A stretch of DNA of 64,000 nucleotides from Oscillospiraceae bacterium (GCA_015068765.1 SVJY01000001.1:6863-70862); one strand, 5' to 3'. Positions 45,959 through 54,096 are shown, numbered from the stretch's first letter. Program-made: numbers and translations. The notes: generated by a model from the sequence alone, not told the origin.

Positions 45959-46657
45959 ATGGAGAGAGTGAAAATTTACGGTTTACAGAAGCTGACGCTT
46001 TTAGATTATCCGGGGCATACAGCTTGTACCGTGTTTACGGGCGGCTGTAATTTCCGTTGTCCGTTTTGCCACAACGCAGGGCTGGTTACGGAGATTGACC
46101 CGGCGGCTACCATGGAGGAGGATGCGTTTTTCAAATTCCTTGCAAAGCGGCAAGGCGTTTTAGACGGTGTGTGTATCACCGGCGGGGAACCGCTTTTGCA
46201 GCCGGATATCCGGGACTTTATAGAGAAGATAAAAAATGATGGCTTCCGCGTGAAGCTGGACACAAACGGCAGCTTCCCCGATACGCTCAAAAGCCTCATA
46301 GATGCCCGACTTTTAGACTATGTGGCGATGGATGTGAAAAATGCCATCGACAAGTACAGCCGGACGGCAGGCGTGACAGTGGACACGGCGGCGGTGGAGA
46401 AAAGCATTGACCTCCTTTTGGAGGGCAGAGTGGACTATGAATTCCGCACCACGGTGGTAAAAGAGCTGCACACGGAGGAGGATATTGAAAAAATTGCCGC
46501 CCGTATCCGGGGGGCAAAGCGATTTTTCCTCCAAAATTTTGTAGATTCTGAAAATTTAATCGGGGAAGGATTTTCTGCCCACAGCCCCGAAAACATGGAA
46601 AGAATGCGGCTTCGAGCCACTCCCTATGTACAAGATACAGCCCTTCGAGGGATATAA
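45959..46657 (+). CDS. nrdG: Anaerobic ribonucleoside-triphosphate reductase activating protein (radical SAM)
   Basis: 232 aa. DYPGHTACTVFTGGCNFRCPFCHN cluster motif, GVCITGGEPL. The start is ATG 45959 or, with better SD spacing, GTG 45968. Confidence 0.9.
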   Translation: MERVKIYGLQKLTLLDYPGHTACTVFTGGCNFRCPFCHNAGLVTEIDPAATMEEDAFFKFLAKRQGVLDGVCITGGEPLLQPDIRDFIEKIKNDGFRVKLDTNGSFPDTLKSLIDARLLDYVAMDVKNAIDKYSRTAGVTVDTAAVEKSIDLLLEGRVDYEFRTTVVKELHTEEDIEKIAARIRGAKRFFLQNFVDSENLIGEGFSAHSPENMERMRLRATPYVQDTALRGI

Positions 46658-46659
46658 AA

Positions 46660-46675
46660 ACACAATATATATAAA
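46660..46675. promoter_or_regulatory. NrdR-box-like site 1
   Basis: ACACAATATATATAAA matches 12 of 16 positions of the NrdR consensus acaCwAtATaTwGtgt. Confidence 0.45.
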
Positions 46676-46681
46676 TTTTTC

Positions 46682-46710
46682 TTGACATGACACCATATAT
46701 ATGGTAGAAT
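46682..46710 (+). promoter_or_regulatory. Promoter of nrdD
   Basis: -35 TTGACA (46682-46687), 17-bp spacer ending in TGg, -10 TAGAAT (46705-46710). Confidence 0.75.
46690..46705. promoter_or_regulatory. NrdR-box-like site 2 (overlaps the promoter spacer)
   Basis: ACACCATATATATGGT has a perfect palindromic core (ACCATATATATGGT) and matches 13 of 16 consensus positions. It lies 30 bp from site 1. Confidence 0.6.
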
Positions 46711-46750
46711 AGATGCAGACACACAATTAAATAAAAAAGGAGATGAAAGT

Positions 46751-49120
46751 ATGTATAATGTTATTAAACGAGACGGCAAAAGCGTCGATTTTAAACTGGC
46801 AAAAATCGGCGGAGCCATTCAACAGGCGTTCGATGCCTGCGAGAAGCAGTATAATTCTGACATCATTGACTTTTTAGCCCTTAAGGTTACAGCTGAATTT
46901 GAACCGAAGATAAAGAATAACAGCATTTCAGTAGAAAACATTCAGGATAGTGTGGAATCCGTTCTGATTAAGGCAGGCTACGATGAGGTGGCGAAGGCCT
47001 ACATTCTGTACCGTAAACAGCGTGAGAAAATCAGAAACTTAAGCGCGACCCTTTTGGACTACAAGGAGATTGTCAATAACTATCTGCATATCAATGACTG
47101 GCGTGTAAAGGAAAATTCGACTGTTACCTATTCGGTTGGCGGTCTGATCCTGAGTAACTCCGGTGCAATCACAGCAAACTACTGGCTCAGCGAGGTGTAT
47201 GACGATGAGATTGGCGATGCCCACCGCAATGCCGACATTCATATTCATGACCTTTCCATGCTGACAGGCTACTGTGCCGGCTGGTCTTTAAAACAGCTGA
47301 TTCAGGAAGGCCTTGGCGGCGTTTCCGGCAAGATTACATCTGCACCGGCAAAACATCTGGCAACGCTCTGTAACCAAATGGTTAACTTCCTGGGCATTAT
47401 GCAGAATGAATGGGCAGGTGCACAGGCGTTTTCCTCCTTTGATACATACCTTGCACCTTTTGTTAAGGCGGACAATCTCTCCTATGACCAGGTGAAAAAA
47501 TGTATCGAATCCTTTATTTACGGCGTAAATACCCCCAGCCGCTGGGGCACGCAGGCACCCTTCTCCAATATTACGCTTGACTGGGTTGTGCCGGCTGACC
47601 TTGCAGAGCTCAACTGTATCATCGGCGGTAAAGAGGCAGACTTTAAGTATAAAGACTGTCAGGCAGAAATGGATTTGGTTAATAAGGCGTTCATCGAAAT
47701 CATGATTGACGGCGATGCCAACGGTCGTGGCTTCCAGTACCCCATTCCCACCTATTCCATTACCCGTGACTTTGACTGGTCCGATACCGAAAATAACCGT
47801 CTGCTCTTTGAGATGACATCGAAATACGGCACGCCCTATTTCTCCAACTATATCAACAGTGACATGGAACCCAGTGATGTCCGCAGTATGTGTTGCAGAC
47901 TGCGTCTGGACTTACGTGAACTGCGGAAAAAATCCGGCGGCTTCTTTGGTAGCGGCGAAAGTACAGGCAGTGTGGGCGTTGTAACGATTAATATGCCTCG
48001 TATTGCCTATCAGGCACAGAACGAGCAGGATTTCTATGCACGTTTGGATAAAATGATGAACATTGCCGCCCGTTCTCTGAAGGTGAAGCGTACCGTTATT
48101 ACGAAGCTTTTGGAGGAAGGTCTGTACCCCTACACCAAGCGGTATCTGGGTAGCTTTGACAATCACTTCTCCACCATCGGTCTTGTAGGTATGAACGAGG
48201 TGGGTCTTAACGCGAAGTGGCTCGGTGGCGATCTGACCGATCCTAAGGTACAGGAATTTACCAAGGACGTTTTGAATCATATGCGTGAGCGTCTCTCCGA
48301 CTATCAGGAGCAGTACGGCGATCTGTATAATCTGGAAGCCACACCGGCGGAATCCACTGCCTACCGTCTTGCAAAGCATGACGTGAAAAAATTCCCCAAT
48401 ATCCGCACCGCTTCGGACGGCACGGACGGTACGCCCTACTATACAAACAGCTCGCACTTGCCCGTAGGCTATACGGACGATATTTTCACGGCACTGGATA
48501 TTCAGGACGAATTGCAGACGCTGTACACCTCCGGCACCGTGTTCCACGCATTCCTCGGCGAAAAACTGCCGGATTGGAAAGCGGCGGCAACACTGGTGAG
48601 AAAGATTGCGGAAAATTACAGCCTGCCCTATTACACCCTTTCCCCGACCTATTCCGTATGTAAAAACCACGGCTATATTCCGGGTGAAAAGTTCACTTGC
48701 CCCGAATGCGGCGAGAAGACGGAGGTTTACAGCCGTATTACCGGTTACTACCGCCCGGTACAGAACTGGAACGACGGTAAGAGCCAGGAATACAAGGACC
48801 GGAAGGTATATGATGTGACCGGTGCGGCAGACAGAGTGTTAACGCGTAAGGCGGAAGAAGAAAAGACGGAAACTTCCGCGGCCAATACAGCGGCAGACGG
48901 CGTCTATCTCTTCACCACTGCAACCTGCCCCAACTGCAAGATTGCCGCTATGACGCTGGATAAGGCAGGCGTAGCATACGAAAAATTGCTGGCAGATGAA
49001 AATGCAGAGCTGGCAACTGCCTTCGGTATCAAGCAGGCTCCCACGCTGGCAATCGTAAAAGGCGGTGCAGTAGAAAAATACACGGGCGTTTCGGACATTA
49101 AGAAATACCTGAAGGAGTAA
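46751..49120 (+). CDS. nrdD: Anaerobic (class III) ribonucleoside-triphosphate reductase with a C-terminal thioredoxin-fold extension
   Basis: 789 aa. N-terminal ATP-cone (VIKRDGKSVDF..KI), a Zn ribbon CKNHG...CPECG and the glycyl-radical motif SRITGYYRPV. About 90 extra residues follow, ending in LFTTATCPNCK...KQAPTLAIV... Confidence 0.93.
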   Translation: MYNVIKRDGKSVDFKLAKIGGAIQQAFDACEKQYNSDIIDFLALKVTAEFEPKIKNNSISVENIQDSVESVLIKAGYDEVAKAYILYRKQREKIRNLSATLLDYKEIVNNYLHINDWRVKENSTVTYSVGGLILSNSGAITANYWLSEVYDDEIGDAHRNADIHIHDLSMLTGYCAGWSLKQLIQEGLGGVSGKITSAPAKHLATLCNQMVNFLGIMQNEWAGAQAFSSFDTYLAPFVKADNLSYDQVKKCIESFIYGVNTPSRWGTQAPFSNITLDWVVPADLAELNCIIGGKEADFKYKDCQAEMDLVNKAFIEIMIDGDANGRGFQYPIPTYSITRDFDWSDTENNRLLFEMTSKYGTPYFSNYINSDMEPSDVRSMCCRLRLDLRELRKKSGGFFGSGESTGSVGVVTINMPRIAYQAQNEQDFYARLDKMMNIAARSLKVKRTVITKLLEEGLYPYTKRYLGSFDNHFSTIGLVGMNEVGLNAKWLGGDLTDPKVQEFTKDVLNHMRERLSDYQEQYGDLYNLEATPAESTAYRLAKHDVKKFPNIRTASDGTDGTPYYTNSSHLPVGYTDDIFTALDIQDELQTLYTSGTVFHAFLGEKLPDWKAAATLVRKIAENYSLPYYTLSPTYSVCKNHGYIPGEKFTCPECGEKTEVYSRITGYYRPVQNWNDGKSQEYKDRKVYDVTGAADRVLTRKAEEEKTETSAANTAADGVYLFTTATCPNCKIAAMTLDKAGVAYEKLLADENAELATAFGIKQAPTLAIVKGGAVEKYTGVSDIKKYLKE

Positions 49121-49122
49121 CC

Positions 49123-50028
49123 ATGTTTGATATCATTGTTATCGGCGGCGGTCCGGCAGGGCTGACGGCGGCGGTGTACGCCCGGCGTGCCGGAAAAAGC
49201 GTACTGGTTATTGAAAAAGAAACCTTCGGCGGGCAGATTACATTCTCGCCGAAGGTGGAAAATATTCCCGGCTTTGCCAGCATCAGCGGTGCGGCGTTTG
49301 CCGAAAAGCTGACGGAGCAGGCAATGGAGCAGGGCGTTGAATTTGAATGTTGTGAAGCAAAGGAAATCGTAGACGGCAATCCCAAGAAGGTTGTAACGGA
49401 CGAAGGAACATTTGAAGGAAAAGCCGTGATTGTGGCTACAGGTGCCCGGCATCGGCTTTTGGGTATTCCGGACGAAGAAAAGTACATTGGCGACGGGATT
49501 TCCTTCTGTGCTGTGTGTGACGGTGCGTTCTATAAAGGACAGACGGTTGCGGTAATCGGCGGCGGAAATTCCGCTTTGCAGGAGGCACTCTTACTTTCCG
49601 AAACCTCGGAAAAGGTATATGTACTACAGAATCTGGCATTCTTCACAGGGGAACAGGTTCTCGTCAGTCAGCTGGAAGAGAAGGAAAATGTGGAAGTCCG
49701 GTTTGAAACCGTTGTAGAGGAAATTCTGGACGAAGACGGCTTTGCCGGCATCCGCATCCGGAACACAGCGAAGGACACGACCGAGGAAATCCGGGCAGAC
49801 GGTATGTTTGTAGCCATTGGACTTGTGCCACAGAATGAGCCCTTCCGGAACATGATTCTCTTAAATGAATATGGCTATGCGGATATGGACGAAAGCTGCA
49901 TCGGGAATACACCGGGCGTATTTGCGGCAGGGGATTGCCGCAGTAAGCGAATCCGTCAGGTCACAACCGCGACGGCGGATGGGGCGACGGCGGCACTGGC
50001 GGCGTGTGCCTATATTGATAGCCTGTAA
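49123..50028 (+). CDS. Thioredoxin-reductase-like flavoprotein lacking the canonical NADPH HRR motif (possible ferredoxin-dependent FFTR type)
   Basis: 301 aa. FAD motif VIGGGPAGLTAA, redox-active CAVC, second Rossmann motif GGGNSALQEA. Where TrxB has HRRD.FRA, this protein reads LQNLAFFTG. Starts 2 nt after the nrdD stop. Confidence 0.85.
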   Translation: MFDIIVIGGGPAGLTAAVYARRAGKSVLVIEKETFGGQITFSPKVENIPGFASISGAAFAEKLTEQAMEQGVEFECCEAKEIVDGNPKKVVTDEGTFEGKAVIVATGARHRLLGIPDEEKYIGDGISFCAVCDGAFYKGQTVAVIGGGNSALQEALLLSETSEKVYVLQNLAFFTGEQVLVSQLEEKENVEVRFETVVEEILDEDGFAGIRIRNTAKDTTEEIRADGMFVAIGLVPQNEPFRNMILLNEYGYADMDESCIGNTPGVFAAGDCRSKRIRQVTTATADGATAALAACAYIDSL

Positions 50029-50068: not shown

Positions 50069-50123
50069 GGGGCTGTAGACCAACTCGATTTTCAAAATCG
50101 TTTTGCTACAGCCCCGATTTTTG
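50069..50123 (+). terminator. Rho-independent terminator after the nrdD/trxR-like operon
   Basis: 10-bp outer stem GGGGCTGTAG / CTACAGCCCC with inner stem CGATTTT/AAAATCG, followed by GATTTTTG. Confidence 0.75.
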
Positions 50124-50172
50124 TTGCACTGTGAAATGTTGTTTTTAGTAGAGGAAGACCTCTACAGTTCGT

Positions 50173-51288
50173 TTATTGCATAGTATTTTCGGAGGACGAT
50201 AAGAGCTCCAGTGCTTTTTCCAGTTGCAGGTCCACACCTTCCGTATTGTTTTCTATAACGTGGTGCGGTTCGATACCGTTTCCGTCTATGATGTAGCCGC
50301 CGGAGGTGTAATAGTGGGCAACAGTAAGCTTTACGCCGCCCTCCTTTAATTTAAACAGATTTTGCACACTGCCTTTCCCGTAGGTCTTCTGTCCCACCAG
50401 CGTAGCACGGCCGTTATCCTTCAAAGCACCGGCAAGGACTTCGGAGGCTGAAGCGCTGTTCTCGTTTATGATAAGTACCAGGGGCAGGGAATTGAAGCTT
50501 TCGTCGCTTTCATACAGGGCTTCACGCTTACCGTCTTTATTTTCCGTATAGACGATACTGCAGCGCGGCAGGAGCATATCGGCGATTTCCGCCACCGTGC
50601 CCAGATATCCGCCCGGATTATCTCGGACATCGATAATGAGCCCCCGTGCGTTACTTTTTTCTGCCCGGTCAATCGCCGCCGCCATTTCGCCGGCGGTGGG
50701 GGAATCAAAGCTACGGATACGGATATAGGCAATATCCGCTTTTTTTTCGTACACAACCGTATCCAGATGAATGGTTGTTCGGGATACGGAGAGCGTCATG
50801 GTTTCCGTTCCGCGAAGCACGGTCAGCGTTAGAGGCGTGCTGTCATTTCGGGCACGCAGTATTAAAAGGGCTTCTGCGTACGTTTCTTCATTAATCTCCA
50901 GTTCATTTACGCCCAGCAGTATATCGTCGGGCATAATACCGGCCTCATCGGCGGGGGTATCGGGGAAAGTGGAGGAGACAACCAGCTTGCCGTCCTGTAT
51001 TTGGACTTCAATGCCGATGCCTACATAATTCGCGTCCATTTCTTCCATGAACATGGCATATTCTTCTTCGGTAAAATATACGGAATAGGGATCCCCAAGT
51101 GCTTCCACCATGCCGCGTATTGCACCCTGCTCCAGTTCCGTCTCCGTCACGTCACCGGCGAAGGTGTTTAAAAGCAATAGCTTTACGGAGGTGACGGGCG
51201 GTAGGGTGAAGATATACACGGCAAAGCAAATCAGCACCGTGGCAACCACACTAATCAGTGCAGTAAGTATAATCGGTTTTTTAGACAA
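50173..51288 (-). CDS. S41-family C-terminal processing peptidase (CtpA/Tsp-like) with PDZ domain
   Basis: 371 aa. N-terminal TM anchor, PDZ (GIEVQIQDGKLVV..TFPDTPADEAGI..DDILLGVN), catalytic context INENSASASEVLAGAL and TYGKGSVQ. Confidence 0.9.
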   Translation of the reverse strand: MSKKPIILTALISVVATVLICFAVYIFTLPPVTSVKLLLLNTFAGDVTETELEQGAIRGMVEALGDPYSVYFTEEEYAMFMEEMDANYVGIGIEVQIQDGKLVVSSTFPDTPADEAGIMPDDILLGVNELEINEETYAEALLILRARNDSTPLTLTVLRGTETMTLSVSRTTIHLDTVVYEKKADIAYIRIRSFDSPTAGEMAAAIDRAEKSNARGLIIDVRDNPGGYLGTVAEIADMLLPRCSIVYTENKDGKREALYESDESFNSLPLVLIINENSASASEVLAGALKDNGRATLVGQKTYGKGSVQNLFKLKEGGVKLTVAHYYTSGGYIIDGNGIEPHHVIENNTEGVDLQLEKALELLSSSENTMQ

Positions 51289-51337
51289 ACTGTTCTATCC
51301 TTTCCGATGACATCTTTATGGTTACTATATGCTGAAC

Positions 51338-52516
51338 TTACTCGAAATATCCCATCGGGTCAGTGTATTCACCGTTAATCAGCACCTCAAAGTGAAGATG
51401 CGGTCCGGTGGATACGCCGGTAGAACCAACCAGTGCAATCTGCTGTCCGCGGGATACAGACTGTCCGCTTTCTACAAGCAGAACACAGCAATGCCCGTAC
51501 AGGGTCTGTACACCGGCACCGTGGTCAATCACAACATAATTGCCGTAACCGCTGTTCCAGCCGGCACGGAGCACTGTGCCGCCCTCTGCCGCAACAATGG
51601 AAGCACCCTGCCCGGCACCGATATCAATACCTGTATGGGTTTTATTCCGTTTTTGAACGGGGTGATAGCGGGTCCCGAAGGGAGAGGTGATATAGGTGGT
51701 GGAGGGCGTTGGCCAGCAGAAGCGGCCGCCGCTGTCCGTGACCTGCGGCTGGCTGGGAGTAGGCGTCGAGGTCTGGGTTAATGCACGGATTTCCGCACGG
51801 AGGGCTTCCTCCGCCGCATCGGCGGCATCCAGCGTGGCACGGTAAGCTTCCTCGTCGGATTCCAGCTTGGAAATTACCGTGTCCAGTGCCGCACGGTTTG
51901 CGTCCAGCTCTGCTTTTTTCGATGCCTGAATATCCCTGTTTAGCTGTACCATGGCATTGGATTCTTCCACGGCAAGCTTTTTCGCTTCAATCTGTGCCTG
52001 GTTTTCCGCCATGCGGTCCAGCACGCTCCTGTCATACTCCACAATCTGGGAAACGGTTTCCACACGCTTTAAAAGGTCGGAGAAGCTTTCTGCACCGAAC
52101 AGAATACTCAGGAAGGAAACGTTACTGCGTTCATACATGACACGTACGCGGTCCTTAAAGGTATTCTCGTAGTTCGTTGCTGCTTCCACCGCTTTGTCCA
52201 GTTCCTCTGTCAGCAGCGCGATATTCTCTTCGTTTTCTGCAATCTGGAGTGAGAGTGTATAAAGCTCCGCCTCCAGCTTGGCAATATCCTGGTCCAACGT
52301 TTTCCGCGAGGCTTCCGCGTTGGAGATTTCGCCCTTCACTTCCGCAAGACCGGCTTCTGCCGCTTCACGGGAACGCTGTGCTTCCTTCAGCTGGGTTTCA
52401 AGCTGTGAGACGGTATCCGCCCGTGCCGTCAGTAAGGGGGCGGCGAAGGAGACAAGGAGCGAGAGCGTGAGTAGGGCGGCAAAGATAATGATCAGCTTTT
52501 TCGGCGTTTTTCTCAT
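51338..52516 (-). CDS. Coiled-coil M23 (LytM-type) peptidoglycan endopeptidase, EnvC/PcsB-like architecture
   Basis: 392 aa. Signal/TM, then about 230 aa of coiled coil, then an M23 domain with intact metal ligands HTGIDIGA (HxxxD) and GPHLHFEV (HxH). RBS GAGGAGG. Confidence 0.9.
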   Translation of the reverse strand: MRKTPKKLIIIFAALLTLSLLVSFAAPLLTARADTVSQLETQLKEAQRSREAAEAGLAEVKGEISNAEASRKTLDQDIAKLEAELYTLSLQIAENEENIALLTEELDKAVEAATNYENTFKDRVRVMYERSNVSFLSILFGAESFSDLLKRVETVSQIVEYDRSVLDRMAENQAQIEAKKLAVEESNAMVQLNRDIQASKKAELDANRAALDTVISKLESDEEAYRATLDAADAAEEALRAEIRALTQTSTPTPSQPQVTDSGGRFCWPTPSTTYITSPFGTRYHPVQKRNKTHTGIDIGAGQGASIVAAEGGTVLRAGWNSGYGNYVVIDHGAGVQTLYGHCCVLLVESGQSVSRGQQIALVGSTGVSTGPHLHFEVLINGEYTDPMGYFE

Positions 52517-52526
52517 AATAACCTCC

Positions 52527-53441
52527 TCAAACCTTTAGATGCCGACGAACGGCTATCAAACTGCCCAGTGCACCCATCAGTGCACCAAACAGGAGCAAAA
52601 TCAAAACAAGCGTACCGGAGACCGTGGAAAATGCACGGAGCGAAAAGGGGAACCATACAGAACCGGCAACGGCACGGGTGCAGGCACCGTAAAGTGCCAT
52701 ACACACAAGCTGAGAAATCAGACCACCTACAAGCCCCACCACAATTCCTTCAATGATAAACGGCCAACGGATAAACCAATCGGTAGCACCCACATATTTC
52801 ATAATGTGGATTTCCCGTTCCCGCGCAAATACCGCGAGCTTTATGGTGTTGGAAATAATGAAAACAGCAATCAATGCCAGAACAATCATCGCAACCACAA
52901 GCACAATCTTAATTACCTGCGTGGTGCGGAGAACGTTGTCGGTTATATCCTGTTGGTGACTGACGTCTGCAATACCGTCCACGGCACGGAGTGCCGCGGC
53001 TGTCTGGGCGGAGGTAGACAAATCTCGGACGGAAATCGTATAGGAAGCACGGAGAAAATCATCGTCCTCCCAGTTGTCAATGGAAATGCCACCCTCCATG
53101 AGCATGGCACGGGCACCTTCAAATGCCTGTGCTTTTGTTTCCAGCTCTGCGGCGGAAACATTTTCGATGCGACAAAGCGTGGCCTCCAGTGCCGCTGTTT
53201 CAGACTCCGAGAGGGCAGGGTCCACATAAGCCACAATCCGGCATTCCGCCTGTACTTGGTCGGCGATATAGCTTAGGTTCATGCTGAACAGGGTAAAAGT
53301 ACCCAGAAAGAGAAGACAGCCCGTAACGGTGACGAGACTGGCAAGCGTCATCAGAATATTGTGAAATATACTTTTAAAGGCTTCACTGCAAAAATAACGG
53401 AATTCTCTAAACGCCAACGGTATAGCCCCCTTCCTTCTCAT
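52527..53441 (-). CDS. ftsX: Cell division ABC transporter permease-like protein FtsX
   Basis: 4-TM FtsX topology with a large extracellular loop. Follows ftsE. The start is uncertain: ATG 53441 (no SD) or TTG 53417 (behind GAAGGAAGGGGG). The track start 53510 is unlikely. Confidence 0.88.
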   Translation of the reverse strand: MRRKGAIPLAFREFRYFCSEAFKSIFHNILMTLASLVTVTGCLLFLGTFTLFSMNLSYIADQVQAECRIVAYVDPALSESETAALEATLCRIENVSAAELETKAQAFEGARAMLMEGGISIDNWEDDDFLRASYTISVRDLSTSAQTAAALRAVDGIADVSHQQDITDNVLRTTQVIKIVLVVAMIVLALIAVFIISNTIKLAVFAREREIHIMKYVGATDWFIRWPFIIEGIVVGLVGGLISQLVCMALYGACTRAVAGSVWFPFSLRAFSTVSGTLVLILLLFGALMGALGSLIAVRRHLKV

Positions 53442-54096
53442 CGCTGACCAGATGCCCCATATCCAGCGTGATAACACGCTTATGCATCTCATTAACCAGC
53501 TTTTCTGCATGGGTTGCCATGAGGATTGTAGTACCCCGGTTATTGATATCCTCTAAAATGGCCATGATTTCAGCGGCCTTTTCCCGATCCAAATTGCCGG
53601 TAGGCTCGTCTGCGATCAGAATAGAGGGATTGTTGGCAAGTGCACGTGCCATGGAGACACGCTGCTGTTCACCGCCGGATAGCTGATTGGGGTATGCCTT
53701 GGACTTCCGGGAAAGTCCCACCATATTCAGAAGCTCCGGAATCCGCCGACGCATCTGCCTTGTGGAAGCACCGACAATACGCATGGCAAAGGCGACATTT
53801 TCATATACTGTACGGGACGGCAGAAGACGGAAATCCTGAAACACAACGCCGATTTCCCGACGCAGGAACGGGATTTCCTTTCTGGAAAGTGCACCGATAT
53901 TATGTCCGTTGACAATTACCTCTCCCTCCGTAGGCGTTTCTTCGCAAAGAAGCATACGGATGATAGAGGATTTACCGGCACCGCTGTGTCCCACAAGAAA
54001 TACAAACTCCCCTTTTTCCACATGGAAGCTGACATCTTCCAGAGCCAGTGCCTTATTATCTTCGTAGATTTTGGTAACGTGATTGAAGTGAATCAT
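53407..54096 (-). CDS. ftsE: Cell division ATP-binding protein FtsE
   Basis: 229 aa. Walker A GHSGAGKSS, signature LSGGEQQR, Walker B ILIADEPTGNLD. Confidence 0.95.
   Translation of the reverse strand: MIHFNHVTKIYEDNKALALEDVSFHVEKGEFVFLVGHSGAGKSSIIRMLLCEETPTEGEVIVNGHNIGALSRKEIPFLRREIGVVFQDFRLLPSRTVYENVAFAMRIVGASTRQMRRRIPELLNMVGLSRKSKAYPNQLSGGEQQRVSMARALANNPSILIADEPTGNLDREKAAEIMAILEDINNRGTTILMATHAEKLVNEMHKRVITLDMGHLVSDEKEGGYTVGV

Follow-up and report, generated by a model that had tools for sequence, protein, structure and literature searches.

The re-reduction of thioredoxin-type class III ribonucleotide reductases (RNRs) is poorly understood, and in the parts of the literature that deal with it the reductant is defined only for the Neisseria bacilliformis and M. 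barkeri systems. Enzymes of this type show low activities, and an external shuttle disulfide is yet to be demonstrated in them. NrdD2 enzymes, which take thioredoxin as reductant, are defined in the scheme of Wei et al., as relayed in PMC4493059, by a third Cys beside the radical Cys and by an active-site Glu (E495 in Thermotoga maritima, E438 in N. bacilliformis). The NrdD of T. maritima was inactive with formate and required a protein factor; its natural partner was never identified. On the reductase side, flavin thioredoxin reductases that depend on ferredoxin (FFTRs) have been described as devoid of GxGxxA as well as of HRRxxxR. A redoxin joined to NrdD appears in a 2018 RefSeq survey, which lists one Glutaredoxin:NrdD fusion, undescribed, in Lachnospiraceae bacterium TWA4 (subclass NrdDd). 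In the present study a stretch of 64,000 nucleotides (nt) from an Oscillospiraceae bacterium (GCA_015068765.1, SVJY01000001.1:6863-70862; hereafter the window) was analyzed, in which a class III RNR gene encodes an NrdD with a thioredoxin-fold domain tethered to its C-terminus and is followed at once by a gene for a flavoprotein homologous to thioredoxin reductase (TrxR).

The open reading frames (ORFs) concerned all lie on the plus strand, in the order nrdG-like (45959..46657), nrdD (46751..49120, 789 residues) and flavoprotein (49123..50028, 301 residues). An earlier, sequence-only reading of this DNA had suggested a self-contained path from ferredoxin through an FFTR-like enzyme and the tethered thioredoxin (Trx) to NrdD. 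The Trx tail, the thioredoxin type of the NrdD and the linked TrxR homologue stood up to the analysis; the ferredoxin and FFTR part did not.

The C-terminal extension of NrdD is a conserved thioredoxin-fold domain

The NCBIfam NrdD model PRK08270 stops at residue 689 of the window protein, and the remaining ~100 residues (690-789) therefore lie beyond the point where relatives end. The sequence-only reading had counted about 90 residues after the glycyl-radical motif. The extension is real, at the greater length, and each of the tail strings quoted at that time (VYLFTTATCPNCK, KQAPTLAIV, KYLKE) was located in NrdD. Profile searches with the tail gave matches above cut-off to Pfam Thioredoxin (PF00085, residues 715-784, 27.5 bits against 23.5) and to Glutaredoxin (PF00462, residues 718-764, 23.2 bits against 22.9). 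In sequence searches of the PDB, thioredoxins were found at 1e-4 and NrdH-redoxins at 1e-3.

An AlphaFold2 model of the tail was built with 63 homologues. Residues 714-789 were modeled with a predicted local distance difference test score (pLDDT) of 87-93, as a beta-alpha-beta-alpha-beta-beta-alpha topology, the minimal thioredoxin fold of Grx/NrdH size, and C726-C729 was placed between strand 1 and helix 1. Residues 684-713 scored below 50. Foldseek related the model to many thioredoxins with a probability of 1.0 and a root-mean-square deviation of ~2-3 Å over ~80 columns. The tail thus consists of a flexible, acidic and disordered linker of ~25 residues (690-713; 48818..48889), which varies in length among orthologues, and a domain of 76 residues (714-789; 48890..49117) with the motif C726-P-N-C729 and the cis-Pro triplet A763-P764-T765.

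T-C-P-N-C and A-P-T were found in 78 of 78 orthologous tails. Across orthologues the NrdD core is 88% identical to the window protein, the Trx domain 68% and the linker 9%, the pattern expected of a functional domain on a flexible tether. With the NrdH-redoxin model TIGR02194 the tail scored 17.5 bits against a cut-off of 85.75, and none of the NCBIfam redoxin equivalogs reached its cut-off, so that the tail forms a Trx-fold subfamily of its own, comprising 260 clusters at 50% identity (E ≤ 1e-10). Pfam, AlphaFold2, Foldseek and conservation agree with the earlier assignment of the tail to a thioredoxin-fold redoxin module. It is a real, conserved redoxin domain, tethered to NrdD and under selection.

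The linker (window residues 690-716) contains two or more cysteines in 39 of the 78 orthologues, mostly as CxC (CEC, CAC, CDC, CNC), and none in the window protein. They may serve as an optional shuttle, comparable to the cysteines at the C-termini of class I and II RNRs, or may form a metal site.

The distribution of the fusion was followed by a genome scan with one genome per species, which returned at least 553 genomes with relatives of the NrdD C-terminal region; a protein search gave 1722 proteins. The queries cover the glycyl-radical region and these numbers may include unfused NrdDs; the fusion was verified at the best 80 loci, which were kept. At these loci the in-frame NrdD-Trx fusion was present in 80/80. 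All of them belong to uncultured, Oscillospirales-type Clostridia from the guts of animals and humans (Acutalibacteraceae, Ca. Fimenecus, Ructibacterium, Ruminococcus sp. CAG:488), and the orthologous NrdDs are 77-88% identical to that of the window. At this distance the source species does not seem to be one of the representatives covered by the scan. Almost all members are metagenome-assembled genomes, and the arrangement has therefore probably been invisible to RefSeq-based surveys.

The gene behind the fused nrdD encodes a remodeled thioredoxin reductase

The junction between nrdD and the flavoprotein gene reads TAA-CC-ATG, with 2 nt between stop and start as had been read earlier, and a GAAGGAG Shine-Dalgarno sequence for the flavoprotein gene sits within the final nrdD codons. 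Of the loci, 77 extend far enough downstream to be judged, and in all 77 the same gene lies directly 3′ of the fused nrdD. With the 2-nt spacing, this synteny and the single promoter and terminator described below, the tight linkage of a TrxR homologue to nrdD is well borne out. In two metagenomic gene calls (P0259, P0273) the linker with its CPNC Trx domain follows immediately on the N-terminal part of a reductase of this type, which may reflect either chimeric assembly or a genuine rearrangement at the nrdD-trxR junction.

The flavoprotein matches PF07992 with 161 bits and TIGR01292 with 309 bits, the latter below the TrxR equivalog cut-off of 343. Motifs were counted in 73 orthologous flavoproteins. 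The FAD motif GGGPAG (residues 8-13) is invariant, and the redox-active C129-A-V-C132 (49507..49518) and the dinucleotide (pyrophosphate) fingerprint G146-G-G-N-S-A151 (49558..49575), both noticed in the sequence-only reading, occur in 73/73. At the site of HRRxxxR, which binds the NADPH 2′-phosphate, the protein has Q169-N-L-A-F-F-T-G-E177 (49627..49653). The earlier observation that VLQNLAFFTGE stands here in place of HRRxxxR is confirmed by alignment to solved TrxRs (7aaw, 4gcm), where it falls on IVHRRDxLRAQ. E. coli TrxB served as the reference sequence, and the alignment at HRR is shown independently by the PDB alignments.

Within this site Q169, L171, T175, G176 and E177 are present in 73/73, and residue 170 is N in 66 and D in 7. 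The constancy of QNLxxxTGE argues that the 2′-phosphate site has been remodeled, not degraded; together with the CPNC and A-P-T motifs of the tail (78/78), it also shows that these features are not due to chance. The enzymes with QNLxxxTGE form a conserved TrxR subtype which has no name in curated models.

The residues for docking of Trx are altered as well. The canonical G-[R/K]-G is G-D-G in the window protein (E in 46, N in 21 and D in 5 members of the family), and the canonical F-F is an invariant A-F. In DvTR3, altered GR/KG and FF residues were tied to strict partner specificity by Valette et al. (PMC5627308). Assignment to the TRi type of the same authors was tried and rejected: TRi enzymes have TQ/NGK and a degenerate GxGxxA, which do not fit the flavoprotein. 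Within residues 123-136 (49489-49530) the docking Arg/Lys of G-[R/K]-G is exchanged for Asp/Glu/Asn and the first Phe of F-F for Ala throughout the family, which looks like a charge reversal at a partner interface. On these motifs, the flavoprotein is best taken as a dedicated, remodeled low-Mr TrxR paralogue of the nrdD operon, and not as an FFTR.

The active site of NrdD has the thioredoxin-type signature

NrdD is a class III RNR by PF13597 (632 bits) and by NF006126 (1126 bits against a cut-off of 548, residues 2-689). Pfam places an ATP-cone at residues 3-92 (46757..47026; PF03477, 76 bits) and the NRDD domain at 121-687. The zinc ribbon C637/H640/C650/C653 and the glycyl-radical motif RITGYYR (residues 662-668, with G665) span 48659..48754. 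Thus the ATP-cone, zinc ribbon and glycyl-radical motif named in the earlier reading were all recovered by Pfam and in the sequence. The ribbon (48659-48709) is of the form C-x2-H...C-x2-C (Cys3His), not four cysteines. Both ribbon and glycyl-radical motif are constant in the 59 full-length orthologues on which the active-site counts are based.

NrdD was aligned with the T. maritima enzyme (4coi), a modest match at E = 5e-40. Y174-C175, the strand-A cysteine (47270..47275), falls on T. maritima Y124-C125. The finger loop M380-C381-C382-R383, of the double-Cys type (47888..47899), falls on SCCR 328-331, with C381-C382 on C329-C330, and E529 (48335..48337) falls on E495, the active-site glutamate of NrdD2-type enzymes. 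Each is invariant (59/59). On the strength of the double Cys, the Glu and the strand-A Cys, all of them invariant and all matched by residues of the T. maritima enzyme, NrdD is assigned to the thioredoxin type with an NrdD2 signature, rather than to the formate type.

Proposed electron path from NADH to the NrdD active site

The following path is proposed. Turnover would oxidise the active-site cysteines of NrdD, C175 with C381/C382. The CPNC Trx domain, on its disordered linker behind the glycyl-radical domain, would re-reduce them; the oxidised tail would be reduced by the flavoprotein (FAD, CAVC) encoded 2 nt downstream; and NADH would supply the electrons to the flavoprotein. For the whole path, NADH to dedicated Q-N-L TrxR to tethered CPNC Trx to NrdD2 active site, we estimate a probability of roughly 0.6. 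The portion downstream of the flavoprotein, from flavoprotein to tail and from tail to NrdD, can be put forward with more confidence, and we regard it as likely.

Some observations weigh against the path. The preference for NADH is extrapolated from an enzyme that is 41% identical and carries another motif (QLL in place of QNL), and other TrxRs without HRR (DvTRi, T. acidophilum) use neither NADH nor NADPH (PMC5627308). Met380 of the formate-type motif is kept in NrdD, as MCCR; according to Burnim et al., MCCR enzymes could in principle use formate or thioredoxin, so that formate is chemically conceivable. Phage relatives carry the fusion without an adjacent reductase.

NADH, NADPH or ferredoxin as the electron donor

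The best PDB match of the flavoprotein was 7jyp (240 bits, 2e-70), which a sequence search identified as a Thermosipho TrxR (99% identical to P0121, 91% to the T. melanesiensis enzyme). E. coli TrxR scored 189 bits. FFTRs scored lower: the 6gna-6gnd entries, which include C. acetobutylicum FFTR2 as 6gnc/6gnd, gave 109-124 bits, and the Gloeobacter enzyme (5j60) gave 156 bits. The site of HRRxxxR reads VLQNLAFFTGE in the window protein, VQNLPYLTAAK in 7jyp and IQLLETLTAAK in the T. maritima TrxR (AAD35951.1), which is 41% identical to the flavoprotein. The flavoprotein has the characters of the Q-x-L type: Gln at the position of E. coli His175, Leu at Arg177, Thr at Arg181, and GxGxxA kept. Q-N-L...T is the common form in the TrxRs of Thermosipho, Fervidobacterium and Kosmotoga, and Thermotoga has QLLETLTA. 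TrxRs of the Q-x-L type are not generally linked to nrdD.

The T. maritima TrxR is cited in PMC5627308 as preferring NADH over NADPH. Because the 2′-phosphate site is replaced, GGGNSA is kept and the T. maritima relative is cited as NADH-preferring, the donor is most likely NADH, and not NADPH or ferredoxin, a choice to which we would give about even odds. The Asp found for N170 in 7/73 orthologues would be predicted to repel a 2′-phosphate. NADH binding of the AhpF kind involves a Glu at the end of strand 2; the flavoprotein has Gln here, a likeness which is suggestive only.

The alternative that survives best is the one first suggested for this locus, in which the flavoprotein is independent of pyridine nucleotides and is fed, like an FFTR, by reduced ferredoxin or flavodoxin. 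HRRxxxR is indeed gone, with another conserved motif in its place, and several HRR-less TrxR homologues are independent of NAD(P)H. Ferredoxin-driven reduction of a class III RNR is known from M. barkeri, as far as the published accounts of that system describe it, and ferredoxin:thioredoxin reductase (FTR)-type Fe-S modules occur in relatives, fused to NrdD-Trx or to NrdG-like proteins (see below). Reduced ferredoxin is plentiful in strict anaerobes of the Oscillospirales, to which the host belongs. The flavoprotein itself, however, lacks only HRRxxxR: its GGGNSA is invariant, and the double loss described for FFTRs is not seen. Its sequence lies much nearer to TrxRs that use NAD(P)H (189-240 bits) than to FFTRs, and the protein ends where E. 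coli TrxB ends, with no C-terminal tail like the one that stacks on FAD in the Gloeobacter FFTR. Its QNL is the common form in the TrxRs of three Thermotogota genera, and the related T. maritima enzyme, with QLL, is cited as NADH-preferring. No ferredoxin or flavodoxin gene was found in the 64-kb window or conserved near the operon, and an ORF with a 4Fe-4S motif lay within 3 kb at 6/77 loci, none of them conserved. On this balance the ferredoxin-dependent, FFTR-like character first suggested for the flavoprotein is not upheld, and a ferredoxin-fed enzyme is considered unlikely.

Formate as a possible reductant, and the reality of the fusion

The next alternative gives the tail another task. 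It would keep the cysteines of the zinc ribbon and glycyl-radical domain reduced for activation by NrdG, or repair them after exposure to oxygen, and formate would be the reductant by way of Met380. The tail is joined directly behind the glycyl-radical domain, and the Met of the formate motif is invariant in enzymes which Burnim et al. deem fit for either route. Yet the third Cys and the active-site Glu of the thioredoxin type are invariant too, and at the position of Glu529 the structure-sequence alignment shows Leu in P. copri NrdD and Tyr in S. thermophilus NrdD. T. maritima NrdD, with the same signature, needed its protein factor and did not work with formate. A dedicated, co-transcribed reductase would also suit stoichiometric turnover better than occasional repair. 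Activation or repair with formate as reductant is therefore held to be improbable, more so than a ferredoxin-fed flavoprotein. That the fusion is an artefact of assembly or annotation (a lost stop before a small redoxin gene), or a decaying tail, has a negligible chance: some gene calls of the tail family do look chimeric (P0259, P0273), but the comparative data refute an artefact, with the in-frame fusion at all of the best 80 genome loci, in independent assemblies and on phage contigs, with invariant redox motifs, and with a domain conserved far above the linker.

Phage relatives and Fe-S modules

Fusions of greater divergence (47-59% identity), with CPNC or CPGC and no flavoprotein gene, were found on nine IMG/VR contigs. 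Five of the loci (L084, L085, L087-L089) are phage-encoded NrdD-Trx fusions with no thioredoxin-reductase gene nearby. In L084 the fusion gene stands directly after the gene for the terminase large subunit; L087 is without the ATP-cone, and L088 has CPGC in place of CPNC. As these fusions have no adjacent reductase, the tail evidently can work with other reductases, and the phage copies would then be served by reductases of the host.

A different arrangement is found in L090 (3144-5774) and L091. Here a protein of 876 residues consists of ATP-cone, NrdD and Trx (CPNC), followed by a CPC-x9-CMC-x11-CHC module. Tested alone, this module matched the Pfam family of the FTR catalytic chain with 23.8 bits against a cut-off of 22; a phmmer search of the L090 module against the PDB gave no match, and it was detected by the Pfam profile only. 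The neighbours of L090 and L091 are phage-like (RNase H, tail lysozyme/amidase). L090 may represent a ferredoxin-to-nucleotide electron path in a single polypeptide. Most homologues of its Fe-S module are either small proteins or fused to NrdG-like activases; in P0413, P0420, P0425, P0429, P0463 and P0468, of 220-245 residues, an NrdG-type 4Fe-4S domain (PF13353) is joined with the FTR catalytic-chain domain (PF02943). A ferredoxin-type route into the tethered Trx thus probably exists in relatives, by way of an Fe-S module rather than a flavoprotein.

Three reductase arrangements therefore accompany the fusion: the flavoprotein gene in Oscillospirales, the FTR-type [4Fe-4S] module in cis (L090, ATP-cone-NrdD-Trx-FTRc), and none adjacent in the other phage copies. 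It is tempting, though doubtful at present, to regard the fused enzymes as a 'reductant-in-cis' subclass of class III RNRs, in which the tethered Trx would be a universal adaptor for interchangeable reductase modules. In the strongest version of this view the QNLxxxTGE flavoprotein would itself be independent of pyridine nucleotides, and two co-translated genes would encode the entire route by which electrons pass from a low-potential carrier to the nucleotide.

Transcription unit and neighbouring genes

A sigma-70-type promoter, TTGACA-17-TAGAAT with a TG extension, precedes nrdD at 46682..46710 on the plus strand. With 11 of 12 hexamer matches it is near-consensus and is the top-scoring site of the region. 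Two ACAC(A/C)ATATATAT boxes, 30 bp apart, lie at 46660-46675 and 46690-46705 (plus strand), the second in the promoter spacer. They are the sole two matches of this pattern in the 64 kb, where 0.12 would be expected by chance, and by the strict pattern such a box is also present 5′ of nrdD in 24 of 62 orthologous loci. A weaker third element, ACACAAT, begins at 46721. By the NrdR-box consensus, the boxes are candidate NrdR operators. In that case nrdD and the reductase gene, and perhaps not nrdG, may be under NrdR control. A search of the window turned up no NrdR gene motif.

Downstream, an intrinsic terminator at 50069..50125 (plus strand), with a hairpin of -29.5 kcal/mol (z = -7.2) followed by UUUUUGUU, ends the nrdD-trxR unit. 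Thus nrdD and the reductase gene constitute a single transcription unit with one promoter, NrdR-box-like operators and one terminator, and nrdG lies just upstream. The latter (45959..46657, plus strand) encodes a class III RNR activase of the radical SAM type of 232 residues, with 218 bits to TIGR02495 (NrdG2; cut-off 131) and with the Pfam domains Radical_SAM and Fer4_12. It is found 5′ of nrdD in all orthologous loci that reach that far, with one exception.

The genes flanking the operon are unrelated to it (FeoB, a BspA-like leucine-rich repeat protein, CtpA-type and M23 peptidases, FtsEX). Converging on the operon terminator from the minus strand is a cell-division and wall-remodeling cluster (50173-54096) with an FtsE-like ABC ATPase, FtsX, an M23 peptidase with a PcsB-type coiled coil and an S41 C-terminal processing peptidase. 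Rfam gave no hit at gathering score in any part of the 64 kb, whether to a tRNA, an rRNA or a riboswitch.

Significance and comparison with known systems

A natural single-chain NrdD-Trx with a cognate reductase offers, together with NrdG, a defined two-protein system for reconstituting turnover. The fusion also provides a route to trap the encounter of Trx with the active site structurally and to gauge the contribution of tethering. This system provides the RNR of a very large group of Oscillospirales, uncultured and living in gut and rumen, and their phages carry it too; it thus bears on the supply of deoxynucleoside triphosphates in these communities.

The closest enzymes by active site are the NrdDs of N. 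bacilliformis and T. maritima (4coi/4u3e), which share the double-Cys finger loop, the active-site Glu and the strand-A Cys. For these as for the window enzyme, a protein disulfide reductant is to be expected in place of formate. Their thioredoxin, however, is a separate, general protein reduced by the TrxR of the cell, whereas in the window it is tethered and has a dedicated reductase gene; the finger loop is SCCR in those enzymes and MCCR in the window. In M. barkeri, according to the available accounts, a class III RNR (NrdD3) likewise relies on a small Grx/NrdH-like redoxin with a dedicated reductase of its own, and not on formate. By the same accounts the M. barkeri NrdD is without the Glu, its redoxin is a separate protein, and its reductase is a ferredoxin-fed FTR-type Fe-S enzyme (ferredoxin:disulfide reductase) in place of a flavoprotein.

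A redoxin fused to an RNR subunit is known from the Grx::ATP-cone::NrdB of Facklamia ignava, which was shown to be an efficient in-cis reductant. That enzyme differs in being of class I, with an N-terminal fusion on the radical-generating subunit, and in its dependence on glutathione. The Grx::NrdD of strain TWA4 is, like the window protein, a redoxin-NrdD fusion, a likeness drawn from the survey listing alone, which gives neither domain order nor neighbours.

For the flavoprotein, the TrxRs of Thermotogota (7jyp; AAD35951.1) share GGG(N/D)SA and Q-x-L-x-x-x-T at the site of HRRxxxR. They are housekeeping enzymes with the canonical G-[R/K]-G, that of T. maritima being paired with a Grx-like protein of 221 residues, whereas G-[D/E/N]-G, A-F and T-G-E mark the window family, which belongs to an nrdD operon. 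FFTRs (C. acetobutylicum, 6gnc/6gnd; Gloeobacter, 5j60/6xtf) resemble the window protein in the low-Mr TrxR fold, the CxxC and the absence of HRRxxxR. They are also without GxGxxA, and the Gloeobacter enzyme has the C-terminal tail that stacks on FAD; the window protein has neither character.

In the literature searched, neither a C-terminal Trx-NrdD fusion nor an nrdD-linked TrxR was found described or characterised, in line with the earlier statement that no such tethered arrangement was known to be characterised, the 2018 listing for TWA4 aside. NrdD2 enzymes, the M. barkeri system and the Grx-NrdB in-cis reductant are already established; the NrdD with a tethered C-terminal Trx domain and a linked TrxR paralogue is a new and widespread variant beside them.

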